DNA from: a virus
Taxonomy: Duplodnaviria > Caudoviricetes
Virus record (IMG/VR): IMGVR_UViG_3300023263_000002
Coordinates: 36,946-100,945 of that record
Direction: 5' to 3' (one strand)
DNA length: 64,000 bases
The notes beneath the pieces are model-generated. The model made no database searches, had not been told where the DNA came from, and saw only the letters and a program-made list of their open reading frames with translations. Position numbers and translations under genes: made by a program. Below, in pieces: positions 27,308 through 48,148 of the stretch (positions are counted from its first letter, which is position 1; each line of letters begins with the position of its first letter).

Positions 27308-28324
27308 TTAGCCAGTCACCACGTCGTTGAAGAAGACACCGAGGTCGGCGGCGACCTGCTGAAGATCCCAAGCCATGCGGCCCTGGAACCAATCGCTGTG
27401 CGCGCGCTCGTCACGGCCAGACTCGATCACGCCGCCCATCGCATTCGTGGCGCCGGGGATGAGGCCGGTCCAAGCGAAGTTGGCAATCGCGGTCGGCGAG
27501 TCGAGGCCGGGATTCGGCTCGATGTACGCCAGCAGCATGCCAGTACGATCGACGATGAAGTCGAAGTTGTCGGTGGCGCCCTCAGCCGCAGAGTTGTATA
27601 CCGACCGAGCCGTGATAACGTTGTCGACGTCGAACAGAGCAGCGAGGATCTGATCGTCGGCAACACCGTGCTGGACGTATTTGATACGGTCAGCGATATC
27701 CGGATGCGAACGCAGGGTCCGCTTCACGTCGGCGCCGAGGACGAGCGTGTTCGGCATGAAGCCGGTCAGCTCGTTCACCTGGTCCTTCGCAAGGTCGATA
27801 ACACCGATCGGATCCGACGAGGCATCATTGAACTGCAGGAACTGGAGGGAACCCGGAGTTGATGCAACGCCTTCAAAGTTCGTCGTCCAGACGCCGGAAC
27901 GGAAGAAGTTCTGGGCCCAGACACGGTCCTGCTTGATCAGGTGCTTCTGCGTCAGCAGGATCGTGGCGTTCTCGTCGAGGCGGATAGGATCGTCCGCGTT
28001 GGCGCGCTGGCGATCGTCAACGGTGTGCTCCAGAGCGAACTCGGTCGCGCTGTAGGTGCCTTCGCCGATCTTGTAACCGACCTGGACAGGGCGGCCGCCA
28101 AGCGGACGGGGCTTGGCTTCATCACGCCAGAAGTAGCCACGATCGTAGACAACGAATTTGTCGGTCTGCTTCAAGACCGGGATCACGGAGGCGGCCCGCT
28201 GCGCGATAAACTTGTTCGAGTCCTGAACGAACATCACAGAGAAGTCGGTCAGGTACCGATCAATATGCAACGTCCCCTCGATGTTCGTTGCCGACGGGGA
28301 ATTCTTCCTGATACGCATTGTCAT
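27308..28324 (-). CDS. Major capsid protein
   Basis: 338 aa; HIDRYLTDFSV, SDPI, PNTLVLG, LRSHPDI; strong codon bias; synteny. Confidence 0.9.
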   Translation of the reverse strand: MTMRIRKNSPSATNIEGTLHIDRYLTDFSVMFVQDSNKFIAQRAASVIPVLKQTDKFVVYDRGYFWRDEAKPRPLGGRPVQVGYKIGEGTYSATEFALEHTVDDRQRANADDPIRLDENATILLTQKHLIKQDRVWAQNFFRSGVWTTNFEGVASTPGSLQFLQFNDASSDPIGVIDLAKDQVNELTGFMPNTLVLGADVKRTLRSHPDIADRIKYVQHGVADDQILAALFDVDNVITARSVYNSAAEGATDNFDFIVDRTGMLLAYIEPNPGLDSPTAIANFAWTGLIPGATNAMGGVIESGRDERAHSDWFQGRMAWDLQQVAADLGVFFNDVVTG

Positions 28325-28803: not shown

Positions 28804-30063
28804 TTACGCGGCGTTGTCGGAATTGCGATAGTCCGCAAAGTCGTCCGGGAACTCAGTCCGGGCCTTCGTGAACGCAGCAGCGTGACCAAGGTTGTCGCGC
28901 TTCTTGACTTCGGCGACTTTGGTCAGGAACGGATGCGAGCCGTTCTTGCGGAGACCAGAGTACTTGTGGACCGAATCATCATCGCCGTTCGAGCCGACAC
29001 GATTGAAGGCCGACTTGATCGCGCCCTCGCCCGCAGCAAGCATCTTCGAGATGGTGTTCTGGACAGACTCGTCGAGAACCTCGAGGCCCTTCAGGACCGC
29101 TGCCTTCTCCGCATTGGTGCCGGGCAGGTTGCCGTAGGAGTCAGCCGCCACCTTCTCGTACTGCGACATCTGACGGGCTTCCCGCTCAGTCGCGGCCGCC
29201 TTCTGGGCGATCTCGATCTCCTCGTTCTGGGCCTTCATCATTTCGAACATGTCGGCATTGGATTCCGACTTGCGAATGGTGCGCCCCTTGAACGTGATGG
29301 TCTCGCCCTCGTCGCCGGCCTTGCCGACCAACTTCTTGCGCTCGCCAGCCGGCTTGCTGCGGAAGGCACGCTGCGCATCAGCACTCAGGCCGCGCATGTA
29401 TTCCTTCTCAGCGTCGCTCATCTTCGCGAGAGCCGACTCGTCCTCGAGCTTCTTGGTCAGGTCAGCAACCTGGGCGTTGAGCTCCTCGACCTGCTTAGTA
29501 AGGCCGGCCGCAACGCTGGCGTCCGTGGAAGCCGTAGTAACCTCCTCGAGCTTCTTCTCAAGGGCCGCGATCTGCTCCTGCATCTGATCAGCAGTCAGCG
29601 CCTTCTTCACCATATCATCAACCTCTTCGTTCGATTTGCCTAAAGCCGACATCATGACGACATCAGCGCTGCTCCACATCTGTCGAATAACAGACATGAA
29701 ATCTTCGACGGTGTTCCGCATCATCGTGAGTTTGGTCTCAGGAGGAACTGCGGAATCGCCAGCAATTGATTTTAGTGATGTATCCATCGCGTAGATAACC
29801 GGACACACCTCTTCCATCACTTCATGGTATTCCTGGCAACGCATCTCCGCTGCCATAGCAGTAGAGAAAGGGACGGCGCCGTCTATGGGATCAATATATC
29901 TTTTTGTTAGTGCTCCAATATCGAGTTTAGTCATATCCACATCTCCATCTGCGCTTTTTACAATGCGCATGAGTGCGCCTGATTGCGCCGGAATATCAAC
30001 AGCGCTGATCTCTCCGATTTCAAAGGCGCGCATGACATTGAGCGCTTTTGGTTTCTTGCTCAT
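28804..30063 (-). CDS. Scaffold protein with N-terminal protease-like strand; possible internal start at 29613
   Basis: IGEISAVDIPAQ at the N-terminus; long coiled coil; GAGG RBS before the internal MVKK. Confidence 0.75.
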   Translation of the reverse strand: MSKKPKALNVMRAFEIGEISAVDIPAQSGALMRIVKSADGDVDMTKLDIGALTKRYIDPIDGAVPFSTAMAAEMRCQEYHEVMEEVCPVIYAMDTSLKSIAGDSAVPPETKLTMMRNTVEDFMSVIRQMWSSADVVMMSALGKSNEEVDDMVKKALTADQMQEQIAALEKKLEEVTTASTDASVAAGLTKQVEELNAQVADLTKKLEDESALAKMSDAEKEYMRGLSADAQRAFRSKPAGERKKLVGKAGDEGETITFKGRTIRKSESNADMFEMMKAQNEEIEIAQKAAATEREARQMSQYEKVAADSYGNLPGTNAEKAAVLKGLEVLDESVQNTISKMLAAGEGAIKSAFNRVGSNGDDDSVHKYSGLRKNGSHPFLTKVAEVKKRDNLGHAAAFTKARTEFPDDFADYRNSDNAA

Positions 30064-31088
30064 CCGTTTACCCTCTCATCGAGTATACGGCGTCCGCCGA
30101 TACTGAATCCCGTGTACGTGCCATCTTTAAATCTTTCGAGGATCTCCGGCCGCACAACTTTCATGCCGATCATCAAGCCAGTGGTCGGTGTCGTGATCCC
30201 CATCATCTTGGCGATGTCAGCTGTCATCGGCCATGCGAATACAACTTCCCCAACCCGCTCGACGCTCCTCGGATCATCGCCAGCGTAACGATGCATATGG
30301 CCAGCAATACGTGAGTTCATCATGAAATCCGTGGCAGCGTGCAACATCGCCTCTTCGGGGATGTGATCGCCCTGAGTATCGAAATACGGCTCGCCGCGGA
30401 TCTTCGAGATGACTGCCCAACCAAAGACGATACCAAGCTCAGTGCTGACTTTGGCGACCTGGAACACCTTCTCGGTGATAGAGTCTTTCCAGTCCTCGTC
30501 AATCGGCTTTAGCTTCTCTGGGCCGAACACCAACTCGCCTGTATAGGGATGGACCATGTCGAGGTTGACATCCGAAGCATCCCAGGAGATAGTGACGTGC
30601 GGCGTGTACTGGAAGTGGTCCCACGTCGCACCGACCGAGCGAAGGTAATCCCACCGCTCGTTGAGTTCTGGTGATTTGAATAGAAGGACAGTAGCTCCAC
30701 CATCACCAAGCCGGACCACTGCTCTACCCGTCGGGTCGTCGGCAGTGACTGGCGTCGCCACAGGAGCCGGCCATTCTACCGGCACGCGCGAGTACGCGAG
30801 AGTAACGTGTAGATCGCCACGCTGAAGAACTGTCTTGAATCCCTGCTGCTTAGCCCATGCGATAAAAGGCTCCGCATTAAGCAGGGGCCGGCTCACGTAA
30901 AGCGGCCGCTCAACCCTCTTCTCGATGGGAGCGTGCTCGCATACAGCACCAAGCCGAACGGAGGCGTTATGGATCGATTGGATATCAGTAAGGTCCGTAC
31001 GCGAGTTACGGGCGCCAATCTTAGCCATAGGCTCAGGTAGGGCCGCCCTCGCCGCATCCGGCAGGTCATCGGTAGAAAACCCTGACAT
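30060..31088 (-). CDS. Acb1-like 2H phosphodiesterase fused to XkdF-like prohead protease
   Basis: LHVTLAYSRV and YTPHVTISW (two HxT motifs); C-terminal GIVFGWA, DTQGD, HMH, YTGFSIGG. Confidence 0.82.
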   Translation of the reverse strand: MSGFSTDDLPDAARAALPEPMAKIGARNSRTDLTDIQSIHNASVRLGAVCEHAPIEKRVERPLYVSRPLLNAEPFIAWAKQQGFKTVLQRGDLHVTLAYSRVPVEWPAPVATPVTADDPTGRAVVRLGDGGATVLLFKSPELNERWDYLRSVGATWDHFQYTPHVTISWDASDVNLDMVHPYTGELVFGPEKLKPIDEDWKDSITEKVFQVAKVSTELGIVFGWAVISKIRGEPYFDTQGDHIPEEAMLHAATDFMMNSRIAGHMHRYAGDDPRSVERVGEVVFAWPMTADIAKMMGITTPTTGLMIGMKVVRPEILERFKDGTYTGFSIGGRRILDERVNG

Positions 31089-31260: not shown

Positions 31261-31425
31261 TTATGATTTCTTTAGCATGGCGCGGCTCTCAGCGAGCAGC
31301 GCCTCGACGGTCTGTCGACGAGCTTCGTCGTCGTAACGAATGATATCAAACTCTTTCTCGTCGTCCTGCCACACAAATCGTGATACAGGATCTACTTTCT
31401 TGACTGGTTTTGCTTTCCTAGCCAT
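31261..31425 (-). CDS. 54 aa protein, candidate immunity protein for MuF-ART
   Basis: Manual translation MARKAKPVKKVDPVSRFVWQDDEKEFDIIRYDDEARRQTVEALLAESRAMLKKS; GGAGAGGT RBS just after the ART stop. Confidence 0.65.
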   Translation of the reverse strand: MARKAKPVKKVDPVSRFVWQDDEKEFDIIRYDDEARRQTVEALLAESRAMLKKS

Positions 31426-31434
31426 CTACCTCTC

Positions 31435-33507
31435 CTATGGAAGAAGTTCCAAAACAGCTTTGTTACTTGATATCGAATGAACGATAAATTTCGAACCTCG
31501 ATTAAGTAGAACTTCATATTCTCCCTTAACCCTACTTATAGGATTGATAGCTAACGCCGAAGAACCCTTTGGCACCATTATTTCAACTACAAAAGGCTTC
31601 TGATTTGCCCGCGGAAGATACCAATTCGCCGCAAAGTCTCGGCTCATGCTCGTACTAAGGAATGCTTTATCTAGAATAACTATTTGCCCTTCCAATGCAC
31701 CAGAAAAAGTCCTAAGAAATCGATCAGCACCCATACCGCGAAAAACCATGATATCTTCTGTTAGTCGAGTTCTAGAAAAAACATCATCAAGGATTTTAAT
31801 AAACTCTCCCTCGAAATCAGGTAAGGTGGGATCAAGCTGAAGTGGTTTCGAACTCCTCAAACGTTTTTCTAGTAATTTGTTAATCGCCTCGTACTGAGAA
31901 CCCGTATACCTTTGAATGGTTTCGAGTTCAATAGACGTCAATGGTCGTTTTAAACTCTCCTCGTACATCTCCCTAGCGAGTGTGGTTAGTTCCTCCTTTG
32001 TTTTAACAGCGATAAATAGATCTTTATTCTTACCAGATCCCTTTGGCGGTTTCGTTACTGTAGATGGCACACCATAATCGTATTTGGCAGAAGTTGCAAC
32101 CTTTTCGTTTCCGATGGTTTTTATCGAAGTAGATGTAATCCCACGATCCTTTGCGGCGGCTCGAACCACATCAGTGTACTTCTTTGCTGCCTTAGCTTCG
32201 GCCAACTCCAAAGCCTCTGCCGATTTCAAGGCTGCGGCTAGGATCTCGTCTGCCTCAGCTATTTGGGCGGCCTCTACCTTCCTAAGTACGTCAGCCACCT
32301 GAGTATTCAACTGCGTAAAGGCTGTACGAGCTACGTCATTGTCAGCGAAGGTAATGAAGCCATCAGCAAAATCATCAACATGCGCCGTATTGAGATTCTG
32401 GTAAACAGGTGGAGGCGTGGTCGGTCGAAGCGGCGTACGAACTGGCTGCGAGATCGCTGTGCTTTCTCCTGGCGGAAGTATTTTAACCTGAGTTACGCAT
32501 CTGCAGTTGATTACCTCAGCAGCAGGAGCCGACCGATCTCCCGGATACATCAGCTTCGCACCAGACGGACTGACAAAAGGCTCTTCCGCGCCGCGGACCT
32601 GTCTATTCATCGCGAGATGCGTATCGCGCGTGCGCGTATCCATAACGCATCGCCAGGTTCTCTGGATGCGGCCCATCTCCAGATCAACCTTATTGGCCAT
32701 CTGGATCGTGGCTGTATGTCGCGCAGCATTGACTGTGCTCAGCATCTCGGTACGCGCGATAGTCTCCGCACGCATAGTCAACATCCGTTCCTGGTATCGG
32801 CCAACCATTCGTTCAATTTGAGTAGTGGATAACTGCACGCCTTGATCGATAGCCCGGCCGATAGTGCTATCGAACCGGCGATCACGTAAGGTGCGACTAA
32901 GCGCCTCAGAACTACCATTCTGGAGTAGATTGCGGTACTTGTCTACAGCCCCCATCTGGAACTGTGTCAAGCCGATCTTGCTTCGGAACAACCTTGCTGC
33001 CTCGATAGGACTCAAGCCCTGCTGCAATGCCTGTGCTAGAACAGTACGAATCGCCTTCCGCTGCGCATCAGTCATCTCACGAATAAACTGCAACAAGGAG
33101 TTGCGCATCGATCTAGCAGCCTCAGCGCTGCCTGGATCAAATGACAGATCAATGTTCGGGCTCACATCGATCTTCTTGACCTGGTTGATATCCAGTTCGT
33201 GGTAGAGCCAATTGGTTTCGAACTTCCCGGCATTGTTAAATACAGGAACCAGCACACGAGAGAAGTTAGCGATCGCCTGATCCGTTACGTCTACAGCTTG
33301 GATCATTCTTGACTTCGAATAGGCCTCGCCGAATTTACTGGCAACCTCATCAGATCGACATTCATCTAAGAACGTGTCGAATGCATCAATGATCAGACGC
33401 TCCTGCTTCGCCTCGAATGTCACGATGCGTTTAACATCTTCCGGCAAGGCTTTACCAAGCGTGGCGTGCCGGAATCTAACTACATGCGACTGCGGAATAA
33501 ACTGCAT
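31435..33507 (-). CDS. MuF/SPP1 gp7-like head morphogenesis protein with C-terminal ADP-ribosyltransferase domain
   Basis: RAETIARTE, DTRTRDTH, YPGD, INCRC; then YTG..Y..IN, VFRG, FLSTS, GEYEVLL (R-S-E triad). Confidence 0.9.
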   Translation of the reverse strand: MQFIPQSHVVRFRHATLGKALPEDVKRIVTFEAKQERLIIDAFDTFLDECRSDEVASKFGEAYSKSRMIQAVDVTDQAIANFSRVLVPVFNNAGKFETNWLYHELDINQVKKIDVSPNIDLSFDPGSAEAARSMRNSLLQFIREMTDAQRKAIRTVLAQALQQGLSPIEAARLFRSKIGLTQFQMGAVDKYRNLLQNGSSEALSRTLRDRRFDSTIGRAIDQGVQLSTTQIERMVGRYQERMLTMRAETIARTEMLSTVNAARHTATIQMANKVDLEMGRIQRTWRCVMDTRTRDTHLAMNRQVRGAEEPFVSPSGAKLMYPGDRSAPAAEVINCRCVTQVKILPPGESTAISQPVRTPLRPTTPPPVYQNLNTAHVDDFADGFITFADNDVARTAFTQLNTQVADVLRKVEAAQIAEADEILAAALKSAEALELAEAKAAKKYTDVVRAAAKDRGITSTSIKTIGNEKVATSAKYDYGVPSTVTKPPKGSGKNKDLFIAVKTKEELTTLAREMYEESLKRPLTSIELETIQRYTGSQYEAINKLLEKRLRSSKPLQLDPTLPDFEGEFIKILDDVFSRTRLTEDIMVFRGMGADRFLRTFSGALEGQIVILDKAFLSTSMSRDFAANWYLPRANQKPFVVEIMVPKGSSALAINPISRVKGEYEVLLNRGSKFIVHSISSNKAVLELLP

Positions 33508-34065
33508 CTAACCCTCCAACCATTCTTTAGTAGGGGACCCGAGTAATTCAGCAGTCCACCCGCTCATACTTCTAACACGATCGCGGAAGTCATTATTTGC
33601 TGCTTCTCTCCAGTGCTTCTGGTACTTCAAAGCCTCGGTCCAGGCTGCTCCCTTTTTGTGCTTGTGGTAGTGCGGCATCTTTGCATCGATGGGAATGCCA
33701 CAAAGGATCACCTTCGCAGCATCTACTTTCAGAGCGACATACGTTGCCAGCATCCCCGAGGACCCTCCAACTGCATTCACCGTTCTTGTACCTTTGGGAG
33801 CAGACTTCGTTGGTCCACCTTTCCCCGTCCAGTAGTGTTGGATATCGGGCATTCCTCGTGCTGCTCGAAGGCGGGCCCATTTGTCGAGGAAATCAGTATG
33901 ATAAGATACCCAGTGGTCGATCCTTCCCGGGTAGTCTACTCCGATATCGTTCACGGCAACAACGATATGCGGAGAGCATAACGACTGGGCTGACTCCAGG
34001 TCAGCCCAGATGCATTCAGCGCCCCCGAGAACGAAGGCAATCAATTTAGACGAGCGCTCCACCAC
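33508..34065 (-). CDS. Maf/GT29-like Rossmann-fold protein, putative sugar transferase
   Basis: VLGGA, VAVND, GSSG..A...A, VILCGI; cluster context. Confidence 0.55.
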   Translation of the reverse strand: MVERSSKLIAFVLGGAECIWADLESAQSLCSPHIVVAVNDIGVDYPGRIDHWVSYHTDFLDKWARLRAARGMPDIQHYWTGKGGPTKSAPKGTRTVNAVGGSSGMLATYVALKVDAAKVILCGIPIDAKMPHYHKHKKGAAWTEALKYQKHWREAANNDFRDRVRSMSGWTAELLGSPTKEWLEG

Positions 34066-34786
34066 TGATAGCCCATGAGTTTAGGATGTGGTGAAACTCA
34101 TCGTAGTAGATTGTGTTCTCGCGGGCGACGATATTCGGACTGCCGAGGGTCCAATGCACCAGATTGATGTGTTCAGTCGGCATCATAGTAACGCCTACAA
34201 GGTGGTTCCACGTCGCCGGCAGTGCGCCGATGTCATCGTCTTCGAGCCAACAAAAAGCGTGGAGGTCTCGGCCTGGGAGAGTGTTGATCATCTCCACAGT
34301 CAGCTTCTGGTTGGCCGGATGCTCACAATTGAAGACCATCACCGAGGACCAGTTCTTCCGATTGTATTTCGTCTGGATCTCGCCGGTCTTCTTCTTCTCC
34401 TCGGTCGGCACGTGATTGTGTTTGACACAGGTCACTGCCTTGCTCGGATCAACCAGGTCGAAGAGCTCGGCCGGATCAGAGAGGAACATGGTATCGCAAT
34501 CGACGAATAGGGCTAGGCCCTCTTTCTGCAGATGCGGAACCAGGAAGCGTGAGCACGCAAATTCAGTAGACATAGGAGCGTCGCTGATTTTGTCCCACAG
34601 CTTCCCTTCCATGTTGATTGACGTCGGCCTGGTATACAGACCGCGGCGCCGCACTTGGTCCAGGACTAGGCCATGGACTGGGATATCCTCACGCTTCATC
34701 ATCGAACGCGCCGAGCGAAGGCACACTACAAAGTTATTCGTCTCGCGGGGGTCGTACCCCACATAAATGCTACGCGAATTTGACAC
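34046..34786 (-). CDS. GT-A glycosyltransferase (GT8-like)
   Basis: YVGYDPRE, STEF..SRFLVP, FVDCD (DxD), RKNWSS, WNHLVG, HWTLG. Confidence 0.85.
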   Translation of the reverse strand: MSNSRSIYVGYDPRETNNFVVCLRSARSMMKREDIPVHGLVLDQVRRRGLYTRPTSINMEGKLWDKISDAPMSTEFACSRFLVPHLQKEGLALFVDCDTMFLSDPAELFDLVDPSKAVTCVKHNHVPTEEKKKTGEIQTKYNRKNWSSVMVFNCEHPANQKLTVEMINTLPGRDLHAFCWLEDDDIGALPATWNHLVGVTMMPTEHINLVHWTLGSPNIVARENTIYYDEFHHILNSWAISGGALV

Positions 34787-35435
34787 AATAATCTCCTGAC
34801 TTTTCCCACATTAGTTTTGCCCCGTTCCCAATCAGGTATTCAAGGGCGGCTGTTCTGCTTAGTTGGTAACGCTCGGCATTACCTGGCTTCTGCTCAAGCA
34901 CGATGACGGGCTTGTCTTTCAGTATTGTCTTTATGGCTCCTTTCAACACAAACAGTTCCCATCCCTCAGTGTCGATCTTCATCAGATCGATCTTCTGGGG
35001 AAAGAGAAGATTGTCCAACGCGCACGCACGCGTAAGATGGCCTCTGCCGGTACCAGGTTCGGCTACGTGAGCATTGCCGCTGTTGCCCTCGACGTATTCA
35101 ATCCTGATGTCAGAGTCTACATTCGACAACGCTACCTTGTGGCCGGTGACGTTCTCGATCCCTGCGCAGTTCCGTTTCCAGCACTCGAATAGCACCGGAT
35201 GCGGCTCGAAGGCTTCCACGTGATCGAAGAGTGACGCGAGCACGTGAGTCCACAGGCCGACATGGGCCCCGATATCGACCGCGAGGCCGCGCGATGACTC
35301 GGGTACCAGGGCTACCGCAGCGTGTAGCTTCTTGGACTGGTACTGCCCGCGATTCAGCAGAAGCTCCTCACGCTCGAGGTGCTGCTGGAAATGGGTATCG
35401 TCGTCGGGGAACCACATTCCACGAATCTGCTTCAT
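34770..35435 (-). CDS. FkbM-family methyltransferase
   Basis: VDIGAHVGLW, AFEP, KIDTEGWE..VLKGA. Confidence 0.9.
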   Translation of the reverse strand: MKQIRGMWFPDDDTHFQQHLEREELLLNRGQYQSKKLHAAVALVPESSRGLAVDIGAHVGLWTHVLASLFDHVEAFEPHPVLFECWKRNCAGIENVTGHKVALSNVDSDIRIEYVEGNSGNAHVAEPGTGRGHLTRACALDNLLFPQKIDLMKIDTEGWELFVLKGAIKTILKDKPVIVLEQKPGNAERYQLSRTAALEYLIGNGAKLMWEKSGDYCVKFA

Positions 35436-36223
35436 CTCCAGTAAGCCTCTCTCCGCATGTTCTTGACTTCGACCTTGCTCGTGCGGCCATGCCGCTTTCG
35501 TGCACCCTTCGCATGATCAAGACGTGAGCCAAGCTCGCAGTGCACGAATGGATGATGCTGGCGACTGTGTCTCCCCGATAGGCTATGAGGAGTAGTAAGC
35601 CAACCCTGCGCGATTCCGCGCAGAGCTATTCGTTGGAAGACGTATGAGTCGTGAGTCTCGTCAAGCTCGAATATCTTTCCCGACTCATAAATCTCTCGCA
35701 TCTCTGACATGAACCGAGTATGTTCAGGTCTCCAGCACTTGAACATCATGAACCCACACTCGGGATAACCCCGATCACGATGTAGCCACGCGATGTACGT
35801 GTCGGTTGGAAATAGACTGAACAGCCAGTCAGCATCAACGTGAGTATGGGCCAAGGTATCGGCGTCTATCATTATGAGCAGGTCTTCGCCGCACTTGCCT
35901 GCAGCATCAGTTAGTGCTGCTACCTTGTGCCCGAACTTCAGGCAATCACGCCGGAAGTCATACTCCCGGCGCTCTCTGTTCTTTCTGCGGTCGCGACCAA
36001 CAGCATCAGGATTGTCAGCGTGCTTCTTTTTGAACTCCGTGTACCACTCTGGCATGTCGCGATACACTACATTCTTTATCGCTGGGAGGTCGGCGCTCGG
36101 GATGTCCTCGCTGTAGAAATACAGCTTAATATCTCTCGGCCAGAAACGATCGAATGTCCGCAGTAGGCGATGCCCGTATTCCTCGTACCCTTTCTTGCTA
36201 GTCGTCGTAACTACTCGGATCAT
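35432..36223 (-). CDS. GT-A glycosyltransferase-like protein
   Basis: VVTT, KFGHKV, MIDADT (DxD), ECGF, HDSYVF, DHAKG. Confidence 0.75.
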   Translation of the reverse strand: MIRVVTTTSKKGYEEYGHRLLRTFDRFWPRDIKLYFYSEDIPSADLPAIKNVVYRDMPEWYTEFKKKHADNPDAVGRDRRKNRERREYDFRRDCLKFGHKVAALTDAAGKCGEDLLIMIDADTLAHTHVDADWLFSLFPTDTYIAWLHRDRGYPECGFMMFKCWRPEHTRFMSEMREIYESGKIFELDETHDSYVFQRIALRGIAQGWLTTPHSLSGRHSRQHHPFVHCELGSRLDHAKGARKRHGRTSKVEVKNMRREAYWR

Positions 36224-36743
36224 CCTTAACCTCGTAATCGGCCCTAATGATGAGCCCATCTCGTTTGTACTGGCTCAGCTTCTGATTCCACCACCGCGGA
36301 GACATCACGGTAAGGTGCACGTTTACCCCGTCAGGAAACTCCTTCCTAGCAGGGCGGCAGCAGATCGCGAAGTAGGCAAAGCCTCGCTTCCCGATATATC
36401 CGAATAGATTCTTTAGTAGCTCGTCGATATCGGTCTGCGAGATGTGCTCCATGACATCTGTGCAGATGACACCATCGAACTTCGTGCCTTCGGCTGGCGG
36501 ATCCTGAAGCTGAACTACTCCAGGATCGTAACAGGTTGGAAGGATCCCCCAAGCCTCGTGGACTCTGGCTTTCAAATACTGATAGCCTTTTCCGCTACCG
36601 TAGTCCAGAATCGTCTTCGCGCCTGTATCCTTGACCAGCTGGGTGATCTCCTGGACGGATACAGACTTGAGCGCCCCGCTAAACCACTTAGGGTGTTGCT
36701 GGTGTAGTTCCCTGTAGCGTTTTTGATATTTGAATTGACCCAT
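36198..36743 (-). CDS. Class I SAM methyltransferase, paralogue family M2
   Basis: LDYGSGKG, CYDP, VICTDVMEH, NVHLTV..WW. Confidence 0.85.
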   Translation of the reverse strand: MGQFKYQKRYRELHQQHPKWFSGALKSVSVQEITQLVKDTGAKTILDYGSGKGYQYLKARVHEAWGILPTCYDPGVVQLQDPPAEGTKFDGVICTDVMEHISQTDIDELLKNLFGYIGKRGFAYFAICCRPARKEFPDGVNVHLTVMSPRWWNQKLSQYKRDGLIIRADYEVKDDPSSYDD

Positions 36744-37581
36744 CTAACATTCCCCAAAACTTACCGTCGTTGATTTCCGACACGCTCCACTGGCAATACG
36801 CCAAATCATTCAGTAGAGTATGAACTTCCTCGACACTTGCCTCCCTAGGGTTGTTAACGTCTTCAAGCGCGCGGGAGGATATCGGAGCGATAACAGCCTC
36901 GCCGAGACAGATGGTTGGGATGCCGTCAAAGAGGGCTTCCATCACTGCGTTGCTCCCGTACGTCACCATGGCATGCGCGCCACGCAGATCTGCGCGAATG
37001 CCAATCTCAGTTGAGAACTCAGACCCAGGCAGCTTTTCTGCCTCGTGCCAGGACTTCTTCGGACGGTAGAGTATCTCCCGCTTGGTCAGAGCATGGAGAC
37101 GATCAACAACATCCTGCCAGAATTTAGTCGGATGTTCGAGGTTGTGGTAGACGTGATACTTCAAGCTTGATCCAGCGATCAGCACGTGGCCGTCTTTGGT
37201 GGGCTTCCGCCAGCCCTTAAACTCCCATCCCTCGGCCTTGCGACGATCATCAGGCATTCTCAACTGCCCGAGGAACTTCGTAGGCTGGTGGCTGCCATAC
37301 GATATCTTCCACCAATCCGGATTGCGGTTGTAGGCCTTGTCGAAGTAGATGTACGGAACTTTGAGCAGATCGCACTTCGCCGCAAGGTCGGATTTCTTAA
37401 CTCCGATGAACCCGATAATGTCGTATGCGGCGACATCAGGAACTTCTTCGGACAGGGTAACATTCCAGCCGTGCTTGGCCACGCCGTTCTTGAATGCCTG
37501 ACCAAGATCGTATTCCAACTTCCGCCATCCGCCGCTATCGGGATTGGGCCGGATCTGAAAATACATCTTCATTTGATACAC
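36688..37581 (-). CDS. KpsS/KpsC-like (Capsule_synth) GT-B glycosyltransferase, paralogue 1
   Basis: YFDKAY, YRPK, VTYGSN..EAL..GIP, LAYCQWS..E...G..W. Confidence 0.7.
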   Translation of the reverse strand: MYQMKMYFQIRPNPDSGGWRKLEYDLGQAFKNGVAKHGWNVTLSEEVPDVAAYDIIGFIGVKKSDLAAKCDLLKVPYIYFDKAYNRNPDWWKISYGSHQPTKFLGQLRMPDDRRKAEGWEFKGWRKPTKDGHVLIAGSSLKYHVYHNLEHPTKFWQDVVDRLHALTKREILYRPKKSWHEAEKLPGSEFSTEIGIRADLRGAHAMVTYGSNAVMEALFDGIPTICLGEAVIAPISSRALEDVNNPREASVEEVHTLLNDLAYCQWSVSEINDGKFWGMLDGSIQISKTLQGTTPATP

Positions 37582-37609
37582 CTCGAAAGTTTGATTGGGT
37601 TAAGAAATT

Positions 37610-38437
37610 CTATTGCTCGACAATCGGTCTGATGTAATCCCAACAAGCGCCGGATCGCATCTCCGCTGGCGTCCACTGCGCGTACGCAATGTCGTACAGA
37701 AGGCCCATCATATCCTCACGGGCAGGACGGGTTGGATTGAGGATCGTATCGGCGCTGAAGTCGGGCAGGGACATCAGAGACCCTACTCCCTTCTTAGCGT
37801 AGAACGGCACACCAGCAACGAGGCAATCGACTGCGACGTTGCTGTGATGGCTGACTACGAAGTATGCCTCCCGTAGGGCTTCTTCGATTGGCGCCATCCT
37901 ACGCGTTGATTTGTTTGGCTTCTGCCGAACATACACCTCGTATCCAGGTACAGCCTTTTCGACTTCTACCTTTGTCCGCTGCTCCCACTCGCCAGCCTTG
38001 TAGCCGTGGGTCCAAGCCGCTTTGTCAGACATCCCAACAACCATAATCGTCTTGCTGTTGGAATCCCAATCATTCCGCAGCGGAATGCGTAGGCTATCAA
38101 ATCGATCGGATGGACAGCCGCGCCGCATCTTCAAGGCTGTATCCCAATCGTCGATGCCTAGCCGATAGTGCCCTTCTGCGCCACGCTCCCAGTATCCCAG
38201 ATCGAAGAATACAAAATGCTTCCCCGCTTCTTTATACTTCGAGAACACGTGAGTGGTCAGCTCTCCTAGCCAACCATACGCGAGCGCGACATCGGCGACA
38301 ACCTCACCAGTGAATCGCTCGATCGGCAAGCACTCGACACCATGGCGCTTGAATCCTGCACGAAGCGCGTGCCCGATTAGGTTTGGTTTGTCACGCCCTG
38401 CTGCATGATTGGATACTCCATACACTGCTACTTTCAC
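37610..38437 (-). CDS. KpsS/KpsC-like GT-B glycosyltransferase, paralogue 2
   Basis: FFDLGYW, RQKP, SHHSNVAVDCLVAGVP, IAYAQWT..E...G..W. Confidence 0.7.
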   Translation of the reverse strand: MKVAVYGVSNHAAGRDKPNLIGHALRAGFKRHGVECLPIERFTGEVVADVALAYGWLGELTTHVFSKYKEAGKHFVFFDLGYWERGAEGHYRLGIDDWDTALKMRRGCPSDRFDSLRIPLRNDWDSNSKTIMVVGMSDKAAWTHGYKAGEWEQRTKVEVEKAVPGYEVYVRQKPNKSTRRMAPIEEALREAYFVVSHHSNVAVDCLVAGVPFYAKKGVGSLMSLPDFSADTILNPTRPAREDMMGLLYDIAYAQWTPAEMRSGACWDYIRPIVEQ

Positions 38438-39252
38438 GGGTTCCTCCGTTTGTGTAAATCAATAAGCCGGGCCATAGGGTCGCCGGTTACAACTTCTTCC
38501 AGGGTCCACTGCGCCCAGGCAAGGCTTTTTAACATCTCAACTCGATCACCCATCAAGGTGTGGGCAGTCGTGTCGAGTGAGATGTTGTTAATTCCGAAGC
38601 AGGCTCCTGGGCCTGCGATCCACCGATCGAATTCGTAGAAGACGGGGATGCCTGCCACCAGTGCTTTCGTCGCCGCACTACTGCCCCAGGTAACAGCACA
38701 CCAAGCCGGCTTGAAATCTTCTTCGAGAGGAATGGTCTCTCTACTGGTTCCTGGATGCCTGCGGACGTGGACAAGCGTTGATTTACTTATCCGTCTGATG
38801 CGTGGGACGACACTGCCTTCCCAATCCTTTGGCATCGCGACACCAGGCAAACCAACTCCACGCTGCGGCAGCACAAGAATGTGAGTGCCTGATTCCTTCC
38901 ACGGCTGCAACTCGATATCGAGTTTCTCAAACCGGGAGTACTCAGGTGCTGGCCACGAGCCTGCGCCGTTGTGGCGGTTAAGCGACATCGCAAAGGACTT
39001 CTTCGCTTTGCGCATGTTGAGATACGAGTTCTCGACAACAATGACTGCGGCACCATTGTCCTCGAATAACTTCGCTTGCTTCTCTCCTGTACCGTATCTG
39101 TTCCAAATCAGGAGAACGTCATCTTCACGCGGGCGACGTTCCTTAAAAAAAGGTTGGGACTCAACTTGGAATCCCAACTTCTTCATTCCCTCAATGAATG
39201 CGTCGTGACGATATACAGGATTAGGGCGGATAAGAGATAGAGCTATTTTCAT
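38434..39252 (-). CDS. KpsS/KpsC-like GT-B glycosyltransferase, paralogue 3
   Basis: ENSY, RRHP, VTWGSS...ALVAGIPV, LAWAQWT..E...G. Confidence 0.7.
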   Translation of the reverse strand: MKIALSLIRPNPVYRHDAFIEGMKKLGFQVESQPFFKERRPREDDVLLIWNRYGTGEKQAKLFEDNGAAVIVVENSYLNMRKAKKSFAMSLNRHNGAGSWPAPEYSRFEKLDIELQPWKESGTHILVLPQRGVGLPGVAMPKDWEGSVVPRIRRISKSTLVHVRRHPGTSRETIPLEEDFKPAWCAVTWGSSAATKALVAGIPVFYEFDRWIAGPGACFGINNISLDTTAHTLMGDRVEMLKSLAWAQWTLEEVVTGDPMARLIDLHKRRNP

Positions 39253-39268
39253 TACTTATGCTCAAAGG

Positions 39269-39820
39269 TTATAGGGGTTCGCTGTATCCGAAATCGTCTG
39301 CGGTGGTTGATTCAAGATCAGTTCCGGATGATACAACTCCTACGGACACACCAGTGCCGCATAGGTATTTCCTGATCAGTGACATGATGTTATACGAGAA
39401 CCTAGACGGCTCTCCACCCGCACCACGGAAGAACGTGATGGCGGCCGAGCCGGCCTTCAACGATTGGATGGTCTGCTCGTTGTTCTGAGACGTAATCGGG
39501 GCCGTGTCGGCAACAAGGCCGGCGGCTAGCTCGATGCTGGCATTGATGATATCCTGCGGGACAACATCATCTTCCACACCAGTGATACCTGTTCCGGTTC
39601 GTGGCCACTGTAGGGGCTGAGCGGAATCAGTCTTCTCGCCTAGCCAGCATTCCCGATCGAGCGTCCGAGTAGCAGTCACCAGATACCTGGCCCGATCGTC
39701 TAGGCTTAGGTCTCGCCAACCGGTCGCGGTCACTGATGCGTTCAGATATTCATCCGCTTGCTCGATAGTGGCGTATGTATCGTAGACAATACCACTATCG
39801 ATCTGCACCTGCTCAGTCAT
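39269..39820 (-). CDS. Head-tail adaptor (DnaT-like annotation family)
   Basis: YATIEQADEY, LVTATRTLD, Q.LQWPR, VPQDIINASIELA. Confidence 0.8.
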   Translation of the reverse strand: MTEQVQIDSGIVYDTYATIEQADEYLNASVTATGWRDLSLDDRARYLVTATRTLDRECWLGEKTDSAQPLQWPRTGTGITGVEDDVVPQDIINASIELAAGLVADTAPITSQNNEQTIQSLKAGSAAITFFRGAGGEPSRFSYNIMSLIRKYLCGTGVSVGVVSSGTDLESTTADDFGYSEPL

Positions 39821-40251
39821 CTAGAAGCCTCCATCTCTCTGACCATGCGGGCCCGTCTGGCCCGCACCTGATCCTGTTTCCTATTTCGCATGTTCAGCTC
39901 AGCCTTCTTCCTTTCATATCCTAACAGCAGTTGCCGCTGACATCTTCTCCACTCGATCTCAGCCAGGTAGTGCTTTGGCAACTTTCCTTTGACCCTCTGC
40001 ACGAAACACATACAAGAAAGAGTACGAAGCTCTATCGGAATCGCACCCTTCTCGATAGCCAGCTCACGTTTAGACATCGAGACGTCGTAATGTGCGCCGC
40101 TGTGCTTGTCTTGGAAGTGACGTCGAGCAATACCAATCCGCTGGGCCATCGCATGAAGCTCGTCCAAGGTGTCAGCGATCATATGCGACATCTTCATACG
40201 GCCAAATTGACCCATAGGATACTGGTACATGTCATCGACGTAGACGGTCAT
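39817..40251 (-). CDS. DUF4031-family protein
   Basis: MTVYVDD..SHMIADTLDELHAMA..IG..FQ..HYDV. Confidence 0.85.
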   Translation of the reverse strand: MTVYVDDMYQYPMGQFGRMKMSHMIADTLDELHAMAQRIGIARRHFQDKHSGAHYDVSMSKRELAIEKGAIPIELRTLSCMCFVQRVKGKLPKHYLAEIEWRRCQRQLLLGYERKKAELNMRNRKQDQVRARRARMVREMEASR

Positions 40252-46627: not shown

Positions 46628-48148
46628 CTACGTCTCAGATGCGGAACTTCTTCTTGGGCGGCGGCTACGCGATTCACCGCTACCATCTGATCGAGTATCG
46701 CTACCACCAGCATTATCCGGCTGCGGCGGATTGATTAGGTTCTCTGTCGCGGCCAGTGATGCGTCCATTGAGTTCTGTGCCATCATGGTTGGATCCATGA
46801 CACCTTCGTATCTGCTTATACCAAGAAGGTCGCGCACATCATCGATAGCAGGATCGTCTGGTGCGAGGACTGCTCCAGCTGTTGCCATATCACGAATCGC
46901 TGCTGTGATCTGTCCCACGTCTTTGAATGAGACATCTTCAACCTTAAACCTAGGCTTGGACTCTACTGGGAAACCATTGAGGACCCAGATCGGTGTGATT
47001 ACGTCTGCATCATACGCAGCCACAATCGAGCTAAGCACAGAGTTGGCGATGAGGTACAGGTTCCGACTCTTGTCAACAGCTAAGGCACGATTGCCACCTT
47101 GGTCGCCCATCATCAGATGTTCTGTTCCGATGATGCGAGCCATCTCTCTTTGCAGCCGATCGATCGCAGTTGACAGTTCCGGCAATCCATTCGCACTGCC
47201 CTGCAGAAGCTCTAGGCCGTACTGATAGACGCTAGAGATCTTCATGCCATCAGCTGCCTCAGATTCATACGGCATGGAGTCGAGCAGCAGACCAGTATTA
47301 GAGTCCTTGACCTGTAGCTCAACGAAGTTAGTCATCTGCGTGATGGCAGCATCAGCCTGATCCTTGGTAATCTGCCCAGCCTTAACCAACTCCTGCAACT
47401 TAGCCAAGGGCATCCGGCCGATTGGAATACCACGAAGGTCTCTCTCAAACGTCCTAGCCTCAAGGTCGAGGTACTGCTTCAACCTGTTATAGGGTTCGAG
47501 CAGGTTGCGGAAGATACCAAACCCTTCAGGTGAATCCGTGAACGTGTCATCAACCAGATAAACCATCTTGGATCTGGGCAGGCCTAGCAGATTATGGTTC
47601 TGAGGCGAGCGCTGCCAAACACCAAGAACGGTTCCCTTCTCATCTACCTCCCAGCGCTCAACTGTATGCTGCATTCTCGGCTCCAGACTCTCAAAGCCGA
47701 TCTTGCCATCTTCTCTTCTTTTGGCCGTCCACTCCTGAATGCCAAAGCCGTGGAACAGATATGTCGCTGCCCTGCGCACAGTAGACTGAAATGGATTGGT
47801 CATGTCGTGGATAACGTCTTCCACGAACTCAGAGTACATCCTATCCTCGTCTGTATCGCTGGCAGGAGTCACCGTCCACTGCGGATGCGATACCAGGTTT
47901 AAGAAGTATCGCACGCTCGCTGCCACGATCGAGATGTTCGATAGGATCTCAGACGAGATTGTATATCGCTGCTTTCCATACCACTCAGGCGCTTTATCTT
48001 TCCGCTGTACGAATCCTCCGTATACAGCAGTGCCTGTCCCACCCATCTCCTTGAATGGTTTTGCCGGGGGCAGTCCCAGCCCCGGTGTATTGATGCCCCG
48101 GTTCAGACGGCTGACCGTAGCCTTGCCTAGCCGAACTCTTTCAACCAT
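46628..48148 (-). CDS. Portal protein
   Basis: 506 aa directly after TerL; DSPEGFGIFR, ERDLRGIP. Confidence 0.85.
   Translation of the reverse strand: MVERVRLGKATVSRLNRGINTPGLGLPPAKPFKEMGGTGTAVYGGFVQRKDKAPEWYGKQRYTISSEILSNISIVAASVRYFLNLVSHPQWTVTPASDTDEDRMYSEFVEDVIHDMTNPFQSTVRRAATYLFHGFGIQEWTAKRREDGKIGFESLEPRMQHTVERWEVDEKGTVLGVWQRSPQNHNLLGLPRSKMVYLVDDTFTDSPEGFGIFRNLLEPYNRLKQYLDLEARTFERDLRGIPIGRMPLAKLQELVKAGQITKDQADAAITQMTNFVELQVKDSNTGLLLDSMPYESEAADGMKISSVYQYGLELLQGSANGLPELSTAIDRLQREMARIIGTEHLMMGDQGGNRALAVDKSRNLYLIANSVLSSIVAAYDADVITPIWVLNGFPVESKPRFKVEDVSFKDVGQITAAIRDMATAGAVLAPDDPAIDDVRDLLGISRYEGVMDPTMMAQNSMDASLAATENLINPPQPDNAGGSDTRSDGSGESRSRRPRRSSASET

Follow-up and report, generated by a model that had tools for sequence, protein, structure and literature searches.

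Why should a phage fuse a nuclease that disarms a host defence to the protease that matures its own head? The question is raised by a 342-amino-acid (aa) open reading frame (ORF) in IMG/VR record IMGVR_UViG_3300023263_000002, a 100,945-bp, ~99% complete record of an uncultured phage; the window analysed here is the 3' 64 kb of that record. The ORF, which we call the Acb1-protease, joins an Acb1 domain, of the type that phages use against cyclic oligonucleotide-based antiphage signalling systems (CBASS), to a prohead protease. We propose, with a probability of roughly 0.6, that it represents Acb1 cargo built into the procapsid by way of the protease, made together with a CBASS trigger and partly carried to the next host. 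Its mapped parts are as follows.

30060-31088, minus strand: Acb1-protease ORF, 342 aa, with an N-terminal helix motif, an Acb1 domain and an XkdF/HK97-fold prohead protease (Pfam; AlphaFold2, mean pLDDT 88.3)
30945-31016, minus strand: N-terminal motif GARNSRTDLTDIQSIHNASVRLGA, aa 25-48, with a confident helix at aa 30-45 (AlphaFold2; recurrence near related proteases)
30483-30905, minus strand: Acb1 2H phosphodiesterase domain, aa 62-202 (Pfam, homologue alignment, structure match)
30807-30809 and 30597-30599, minus strand: codons of H94 and H164, in the HxT motifs H94/T96 and H164/T166 of the Acb1 domain
30063-30467, minus strand: XkdF/HK97-fold prohead serine protease body, aa 208-342 (Pfam, PHROGs, structure match)
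30291-30293 and 30102-30104, minus strand: codons of protease H266 and S329 (the latter in GFSIGG), both invariant, as is D237

The Acb1 domain and its active site

The anti-CBASS nuclease Acb1 is known from T4 gp57B and from Erwinia phage FBB1 (PDB 7T26/7T27; Hobbs et al. 2022, PMC9117128), and its catalytic tetrad is H44, T46, H113 and T115 (PMC9117128). Residues 62-202 of the ORF match the Pfam profile of this family, PF23474, over positions 2-143 of 144 (E=2.1e-38; cut-off 27 bits), and the genome holds a single Acb1 copy. A sequence-only reading of the locus had claimed an Acb1-type domain and an XkdF-like protease in one ORF, and Pfam bears this out with PF23474 and PF14550; PHROGs agrees, assigning the Acb1 half to 'RNA ligase'/2H families and the other half to head maturation proteases. 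The motifs on which that reading relied are present at the residues it gave: LHVTLAYSRV (H94), GATWDHFQYTPHVTISW (H164), PIDEDWKD (aa 195-202) and, in the protease half, GFSIGG (aa 327-332). The T4 gp57B counterparts that it had given hold against gp57B of the T-even phage RB32, where KIHSTICYSRV, GATHDFDDYTPHITLSY and PLKLDWAD match the ORF motifs column for column at 29% identity, an agreement in sequence that is far beyond chance. H94-V-T96 and H164-V-T166 align with the HxT motifs of both 7T26 and RB32 gp57B.

Across 101 homologues of the Acb1-protease (42-92% identity), H94, T96, H164, R67, R145 and E191 are invariant and T166 is kept in at least 90%. W200 aligns with the lid Trp of the family (W147 of FBB1 Acb1), is Trp in 85 of the 101 homologues, and is followed by a conserved [IVL]-[TV]-E206-K207. 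The ORF thus shares with the T4 and FBB1 enzymes the PF23474 profile, the 2H fold, the HxT/HxT tetrad and the C-terminal lid Trp, and from this conserved active site the gene is securely predicted to encode a catalytically intact Acb1-family 2H phosphodiesterase. It differs in setting, since characterised Acb1 proteins are stand-alone, ~150 aa long and encoded outside the head module, whereas here Acb1 is an internal domain of a head-assembly protein. The column of FBB1 E141, an adenine-contacting Glu, holds K194 in the HMMER alignment; the invariant E191 lies close by, and the Glu is not obviously retained.

AlphaFold2, run on the 101-sequence alignment, gives a model with a mean predicted local distance difference test score (pLDDT) of 88.3 and a predicted template modelling score (pTM) of 0.57, that is, two well-defined predicted domains whose mutual orientation is uncertain. 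Foldseek ranks Acb1 (7T26/7T27) best for the first of these (E=7e-9), followed by the phage phosphodiesterase 9Q2Y and then LigT. In an all-against-representatives comparison with VIA-align, aa 61-204 superpose on 7T27 with a Z of 17.9 and a root-mean-square deviation of 1.7 A over 135 of 140 residues. Structure prediction, a check that had been proposed along with the original assignment, therefore places the domain with Acb1 and not with RNA 2',3'-cyclic phosphodiesterases.

Does it follow that the domain acts on CBASS signals? It might instead target the cyclic oligoadenylates of type III CRISPR systems, other nucleotide messengers, 2'-5' oligoadenylate-like molecules or, as in LigT-type repair, RNA ends bearing 2',3'-cyclic phosphates. 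For head-fused 2H domains, earlier work has proposed that they act as RNases or 2'-5' phosphodiesterases and that they also attack CRISPR and SMODS signals (PMC5512222, PMC9503650). Pfam also gives weak LigT_PEase and 2_5_RNA_ligase2 matches, the FBB1 Glu is not conserved in the HMMER alignment, and the second-best structure is the uncharacterised 9Q2Y (Z 14.1), for which a literature search on the 9Q2Y/BCSR5 phosphodiesterase found no paper. We nevertheless regard a non-CBASS target as quite unlikely. The Acb1 profile scores 131.7 bits against only 17.5 for the generic 2H model, generic 2H enzymes (LigT, CPDase, Usb1) reach a Z of at most 10.5, the lid Trp and the HxT/HxT tetrad are conserved, and no RNA ligase partner lies nearby. 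Moreover, the known substrates of Acb1 include cAAA, a signal in CRISPR systems as well, and this alternative therefore overlaps in part with an anti-CBASS role.

A small prohead protease with a variable N-terminus

The second half of the ORF matches PF14550 (Peptidase_S78_2/XkdF) at aa 208-333 (E=7.2e-10, 39.4 bits against a cut-off of 24) and the PHROGs 'head maturation protease' families phrog_3017 and phrog_34096. D237, H266 and S329 are invariant both in the 101 fusion homologues and in 150 protease representatives, H266 and S329 being the putative catalytic His and Ser. The invariance of both active sites indicates that Acb1 and protease are each under purifying selection. By structure, aa 208-342 match the T4 prohead protease gp21 (5JBL; Z 8.5 over 113 residues) and, more distantly, the herpesvirus assemblins of varicella-zoster virus (Z 5.2) and human cytomegalovirus (Z 4.0); these scores are moderate, and the three proteases are the only matches that form a coherent family. 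In fold, in its invariant His and Ser and in the position of its gene between MuF/portal and scaffold/major capsid genes, the protease resembles XkdF (PF14550) and HK97 (PF04586) proteases, whose profiles belong to one clan, and T4 gp21.

How often does this protease carry Acb1? A complete phmmer scan using the protease half gave 2,210 representatives at E<=1e-3, including 93 at E<=1e-30, with the protease domain nearly always C-terminal, after an extension of 0 to ~500 aa. Among the best 150 protease representatives, Pfam recognises XkdF in 144, Acb1 in 28, ChaB in 22, LigT-like domains in 8 and PARP in 1, which makes Acb1 the commonest recognisable partner of this protease clade. At 65 strong loci from genomes and IMG/VR, the protease is most often a stand-alone protein of ~135 aa (39 loci); other extensions account for 19 and Acb1 for 6, and the ORF ends 0-8 aa past the protease domain in 62 of the 65. 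This variation in the extension marks the N-terminus of the mini-protease as a variable slot.

Searched as a whole with a word-indexed method, the Acb1-protease resembles at least 437 metagenomic cluster representatives at E<=1e-3. The best 120 of these all carry PF23474, most carry PF14550 and many have an N-terminal ChaB domain; nearly all have two HxT motifs ~70 aa apart and a GxSxGG ~15 aa before the C-terminus. No single place in any of 50,697 GenBank phage records matches the two halves together over 80% or more of the protein, and 1,297 of these records match the Acb1 domain alone, mostly T-even 57B. The survey of fusion frequency called for by the sequence-only reading thus has its answer: recurrence in so many clusters confirms, at the level of sequence, that the Acb1-protease fusion is real and common in metagenomes.

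Two groups of relatives stand apart. Distant XkdF-like domains (E ~1e-8 to 1e-10) occur at loci L026-L082, many of them Myxococcota, Polyangiales and Planctomycetota contigs from metagenome-assembled genomes (MAGs), C-terminally in proteins of 450-1,080 aa and often in several copies per genome. Relatives in Rhizobium and Roseobacter phages are labelled 'DNA methyltransferase/prohead protease', a label that we set aside: their N-terminal 120 aa contain no methyltransferase by Pfam and give only a sub-threshold ParB-like match, and they are not used here as an example of anti-restriction.

The same counts bear on the idea that Acb1 is a non-enzymatic passenger or pro-domain, which masks or regulates the protease or serves assembly, its phosphodiesterase chemistry being irrelevant. 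The very short linker between the two domains would fit such a role, and the prevalence of the stand-alone 135-aa protease has been counted on the same side, as it indicates that an extension is dispensable for assembly. A structural passenger, though, would not retain an active site, and H94, T96 and H164 are invariant in 101 sequences down to 42% identity, within a domain that matches the whole Acb1 profile. We consider a mere passenger highly improbable.

The N-terminal motif is a further variable of the extension. Its ~24-aa consensus, GAR[NH]S..D....[IL]Q.[IM]H[DN]...LGA, travels with this protease family and precedes Acb1 in the clade of the present phage. Elsewhere it lies between Acb1 or an ADP-ribosyltransferase (ART) and the protease (P0068, P0258, L108, P0121), immediately ahead of a protease that has no Acb1 (P0148, P0158, P0221, P0226, L106) or, in more distant single-polypeptide forms, behind the protease (L025, L046, L065). 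The differing placement implies two or more distinct arrangements in which Acb1 joined the extension. The motif could be an assembly-targeting or recognition peptide; the N-terminal 60 aa have no paralogue in the phage's own genome, no Pfam match and no Atlas match. At the other end of Acb1, we tried [IVL]-[TV]-E-K at aa 204-207 as a cleavage site of the T4 L/I-x-E type and rejected it, since stand-alone proteases lack it and portal-fused Acb1 domains end in it. Since they end in [IV]-T-E-K, the motif belongs to the Acb1 lid and does not speak for processing.

The head module and an apparent split of the protease domain between genes

The Acb1-protease gene lies within a head module whose minus-strand order is MuF-ART, a 54-aa ORF, the Acb1-protease, a 419-aa scaffold-like protein, a 121-aa phrog_673 protein and the major capsid protein, an order also found in Rhizobium phage RHph_TM3_3_9 and on the metagenomic contig P0004. 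The neighbours that matter here are these.

31435-33507, minus strand: MuF head protein fused to an ADP-ribosyltransferase, upstream; a second effector on a head-internal protein in the same module
31261-31425, minus strand: 54-aa ORF between MuF-ART and the Acb1-protease, without a Pfam hit
28804-30063, minus strand: coiled-coil scaffold-like gene, 419 aa, downstream, in ATGA overlap with the protease stop
27308-28324, minus strand: major capsid protein (phrog_1005, PHROGs), which closes the head module

The protease body is unusual in that the ORF stops 10 aa past GFSIGG, leaving only ~135 aa, so that a canonical HK97-type domain is not complete within one polypeptide. Canonical S78 domains keep the strand after the Ser motif in cis; here an EISAVDIPAQ strand opens the downstream ORF, whose product begins with ...VMRAFEIGEISAVDIPAQSGALMRIVK. 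This N-terminus, ALNVMRAFEIGEISAVDIPAQSGALMRIVK, is the counterpart of the last strand region in canonical HK97-type protease domains. The downstream N-terminal motif is kept in ~50 of 59 loci; the gene there adjoins the stop codon of the protease or overlaps it. Natural cis fusions are rare (L103/P0187, P0197) and have the strand motif ~40 aa past the Ser motif. In the cis forms P0197 (aa 91-184, profile positions 71-158 of 165) and L025, PF04586 spans the EISxVDxPA strand, and it is on this coverage that the canonical HK97-type protease domain appears, from the sequences, to be split over two genes in this clade.

At the junction itself (30060-30063) no slippery heptamer is evident, and a TAA stands in the downstream frame two codons before the ATG. 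To probe strand completion, AlphaFold2 was run on the cis fusion L103, with protease rows only for alignment depth; the pLDDT values in the strand-motif region are 32-63. Two MAFFT alignments of proteases with downstream-gene fragments were discarded as misaligned, 'ILEKFKSGEYTGFSIGG' drawing 'IMRAFKIDEISAVDVPAQ'. After the N-terminal motif, the scaffold-like proteins of many loci (L004, L012, L089, L091, L103) carry a His-rich repeat, DGHxH ... GHxHP ... GHTH, which suggests metal binding; the repeat occurs in most of the downstream proteins and is missing from L003, L005 and the 419-aa protein of the window.

Further from the protease, the ART of MuF-ART is of the Alt/VIP2 type, and the pair of MuF and small ORF is kept on the P0004 contig (691 aa and 57 aa). 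With its 54-aa neighbour, MuF-ART resembles the published arrangement of MuF polymorphic toxin and immunity protein. The minus-strand stretch 33508-40251, on the MuF side of a Mu-type portal gene (46628-48148; ~13 kb from MuF), holds glycosyltransferase-like and FkbM-type methyltransferase genes among others, and the same methyltransferases lie upstream of MuF on the P0004 contig. The minus strand around the Acb1-protease gene shows neither a sigma-70 promoter-like nor a terminator-like site.

Other carriers of the same Acb1 subfamily

Is the protease the only head protein that Acb1 has joined? In a sequence search of the PDB, the domain finds its best match in the last 150 aa of the cyanophage Pam3 portal (8HDS, E=7e-19), so that it lies nearer to portal-fused forms than to FBB1 Acb1 (7T26, E=6e-9). 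Its closest sequences are portal-Acb1 fusions, in Pam3 (portal gp3, PDB 8HDS, PMC9942802), Pseudomonas phage phiPSA1 and Rhizobium phages RHEph04 and RHph_TM26. In these the domain sits C-terminally on a DUF1073 (PF06381) portal, on the end of the protein that faces the capsid interior; here it lies on the N-terminal side of the protease. The passages of the Pam3 paper (PMC9942802) retrieved by term search do not discuss the Acb1 domain. Among 36 ORFs from IMG/VR or MAGs whose match was confined to the Acb1 half, 32 are DUF1073 portals with a C-terminal Acb1, two are DUF2213 fusions and one (L008) combines NUDIX, Acb1 and an XkdF protease. The portal of the present phage is Mu-type (PF06074) and has no Acb1.

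A quick maximum-likelihood tree of 172 Acb1 domains interleaves protease-fused and portal-fused forms, requiring ~10 changes of carrier label, of which the well-supported branches alone force at least 2-3. The topology shows a domain that has, as far as sequence can tell, been swapped repeatedly between portal and protease carriers.

Some carriers hold more than one effector. In P0121 the domain order is Acb1-ART-protease, and the MuF of that contig has no ART, unlike the MuF-ART here. We considered whether one ART gene had moved between the two carriers; the P0121 ART and the MuF-ART of the window are homologous at only 24% identity, so they are the same kind of domain and not the same gene. 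A 1,051-aa protein at L008:7335-10487 (Rhodocyclaceae MAG contig DAIDAU010000514.1) combines NUDIX, Acb1, XkdF protease and a long C-terminal part, placing two nucleotide-hydrolysing effector domains on a single head protease. In RB32 (L166), where the order is 57A-57B-Ip5, the stand-alone Acb1 gene 57B adjoins, perhaps by coincidence, an internal-protein gene (ipI/Ip5) whose product is head-packaged.

Discussion

The general idea of head-fused 2H effectors is known. Fusions of 2H domains to MuF or portal proteins were suggested to break down immune nucleotides of the host (Iyer, Burroughs, Anand, de Souza, Aravind 2017, PMC5512222) and were later taken to suggest packaging in the head and injection against SMODS/CBASS and CRISPR signalling; a NUDIX fused to a capsid-processing serine peptidase was noted as well (Iyer et al. 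2022, PMC9503650). The Acb1-protease belongs with this class in that its effector enzyme is attached to a protein of the head interior whose gene lies in the head module, and the protease is another carrier form of the published proposal. It differs in that the 2H carriers of Iyer et al. are MuF and portal and the serine peptidase carries NUDIX only, whereas here the peptidase carries the 2H domain. The retrieved text of the two papers (PMC5512222, PMC9503650) does not describe the pairing of Acb1 with the protease, its abundance, the carrier swaps or a link to protease triggering. In the literature outside subscription journals, we found no paper describing an Acb1-protease fusion, a packaged Acb1 or an experimental test of either.

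We propose the following model. Acb1 is attached to a small prohead protease of the XkdF/HK97 fold, in the N-terminal extension of the latter, and would be expressed in the late head-morphogenesis module. The protease body would dock on the scaffold protein and enter the procapsid, taking Acb1 along as cargo, while the scaffold N-terminus may give the strand that canonical HK97 proteases hold in cis; such completion in trans would tether the Acb1-protease to the scaffold. Produced together with the protease, a CBASS trigger, late in infection, Acb1 would hydrolyse CBASS cyclic oligonucleotides at that stage, and some copies are probably retained in the head and pass into the next host along with the DNA. 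We infer the substrate, the packaging, the injection and any proteolytic release of Acb1 from the observations given above.

T4 Alt, the T4 internal proteins (IPI*) and P1 Dar are anti-defence or host-takeover enzymes that the assembling prohead takes up; the prohead protease processes them, and they are injected together with the DNA. They form an established precedent for the mechanism proposed here (partly PMC5512222), with the difference that their cargo consists of separate polypeptides with a capsid-targeting sequence, while here the cargo is a covalent part of the protease.

The fusion could also be explained without packaging, as an antidote coupled to its trigger: Acb1 and protease would be made in equimolar amounts, simultaneously and linked, and Acb1 would act in the producing cell only, being lost or degraded at maturation. 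Prohead proteases cleave the activation loops of CD-NTases (cGAS/DncV-like nucleotidyltransferases) and suffice to activate CBASS (PMC12991175), and mutations in the prohead protease allow escape from type I CBASS (10.1101/2023.05.21.541620). These studies directly support the premise, already present in the sequence-only reading, that the prohead protease triggers CBASS, and Acb1 is the commonest recognisable partner of the protease clade (28 of 150), which the trigger role of the protease may explain. Yet the same Acb1 subfamily is found equally on portal C-termini, with repeated swaps of carrier, and no role of the portal as a CBASS trigger is known. The ART and NUDIX domains that share polyproteins with Acb1 are typical injected-effector types. 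An operon, moreover, would suffice for co-expression with no need of a fusion, and the signal is diffusible, leaving little to gain from an enzyme beside the trigger. As a complete account, coupling alone seems unlikely to us. As a second rationale, CBASS triggering by the protease is compatible with head loading and does not exclude it.

Head loading is favoured as the selected property by three lines taken together: the carriers (portal C-terminus, protease, DUF2213 and, in earlier work, MuF) are all inside the prohead, ART and NUDIX appear as co-cargo, and Acb1 has apparently been swapped among carriers. The sequence-only reading had put the antidote tied to its trigger first and packaging only as a 'perhaps'. 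Its domains, its fusion and its trigger premise stand, and the order of the two rationales is reversed by the carrier swaps, the portal fusions and the ART and NUDIX partners.

Several points weigh against the cargo model. Identity to characterised Acb1 is only 25-30%, the characterised proteins all lie outside the head-fused subfamily, and the change from E141 to K194 leaves the predicted substrate range uncertain. The linker between Acb1 and protease is only 3-6 residues long, and a cleavage site between them could not be demonstrated. Prohead proteases usually digest themselves, so that the model has to assume that the cargo survives in the head, and we found no virion proteomics for members of the head-fused Acb1 subfamily. 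The loci were sampled via peptide patterns and the Acb1 tree is a quick one.

In a broader context, it is tempting to speculate, as a tentative extension of the model, that the small XkdF-type protease is a modular platform that loads interchangeable counter-defence enzymes (Acb1, ADP-ribosyltransferase, NUDIX, ChaB) into the head by means of a variable extension, often with the GAR[NH]S...LGA helix, and a scaffold-supplied strand. In this phage Acb1 might serve twice, late in infection by silencing the CBASS signal that its own protease sets off, and again in the next cell, which it would reach ready-made. Studies from 2024 and 2026 identified the prohead protease as the cue sensed by many CBASS systems, and natural fusions such as this one bear directly on whether phages couple an antidote to its trigger. 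With hundreds of clusters the family is large, and the sister portal fusion occurs in phages already in culture (Pam3, phiPSA1 and several Rhizobium phages), which makes the question testable now. If Acb1 is indeed loaded into capsids, a ready-made signal-degrading enzyme would be delivered with the DNA, an anti-CBASS mode without known experimental precedent.

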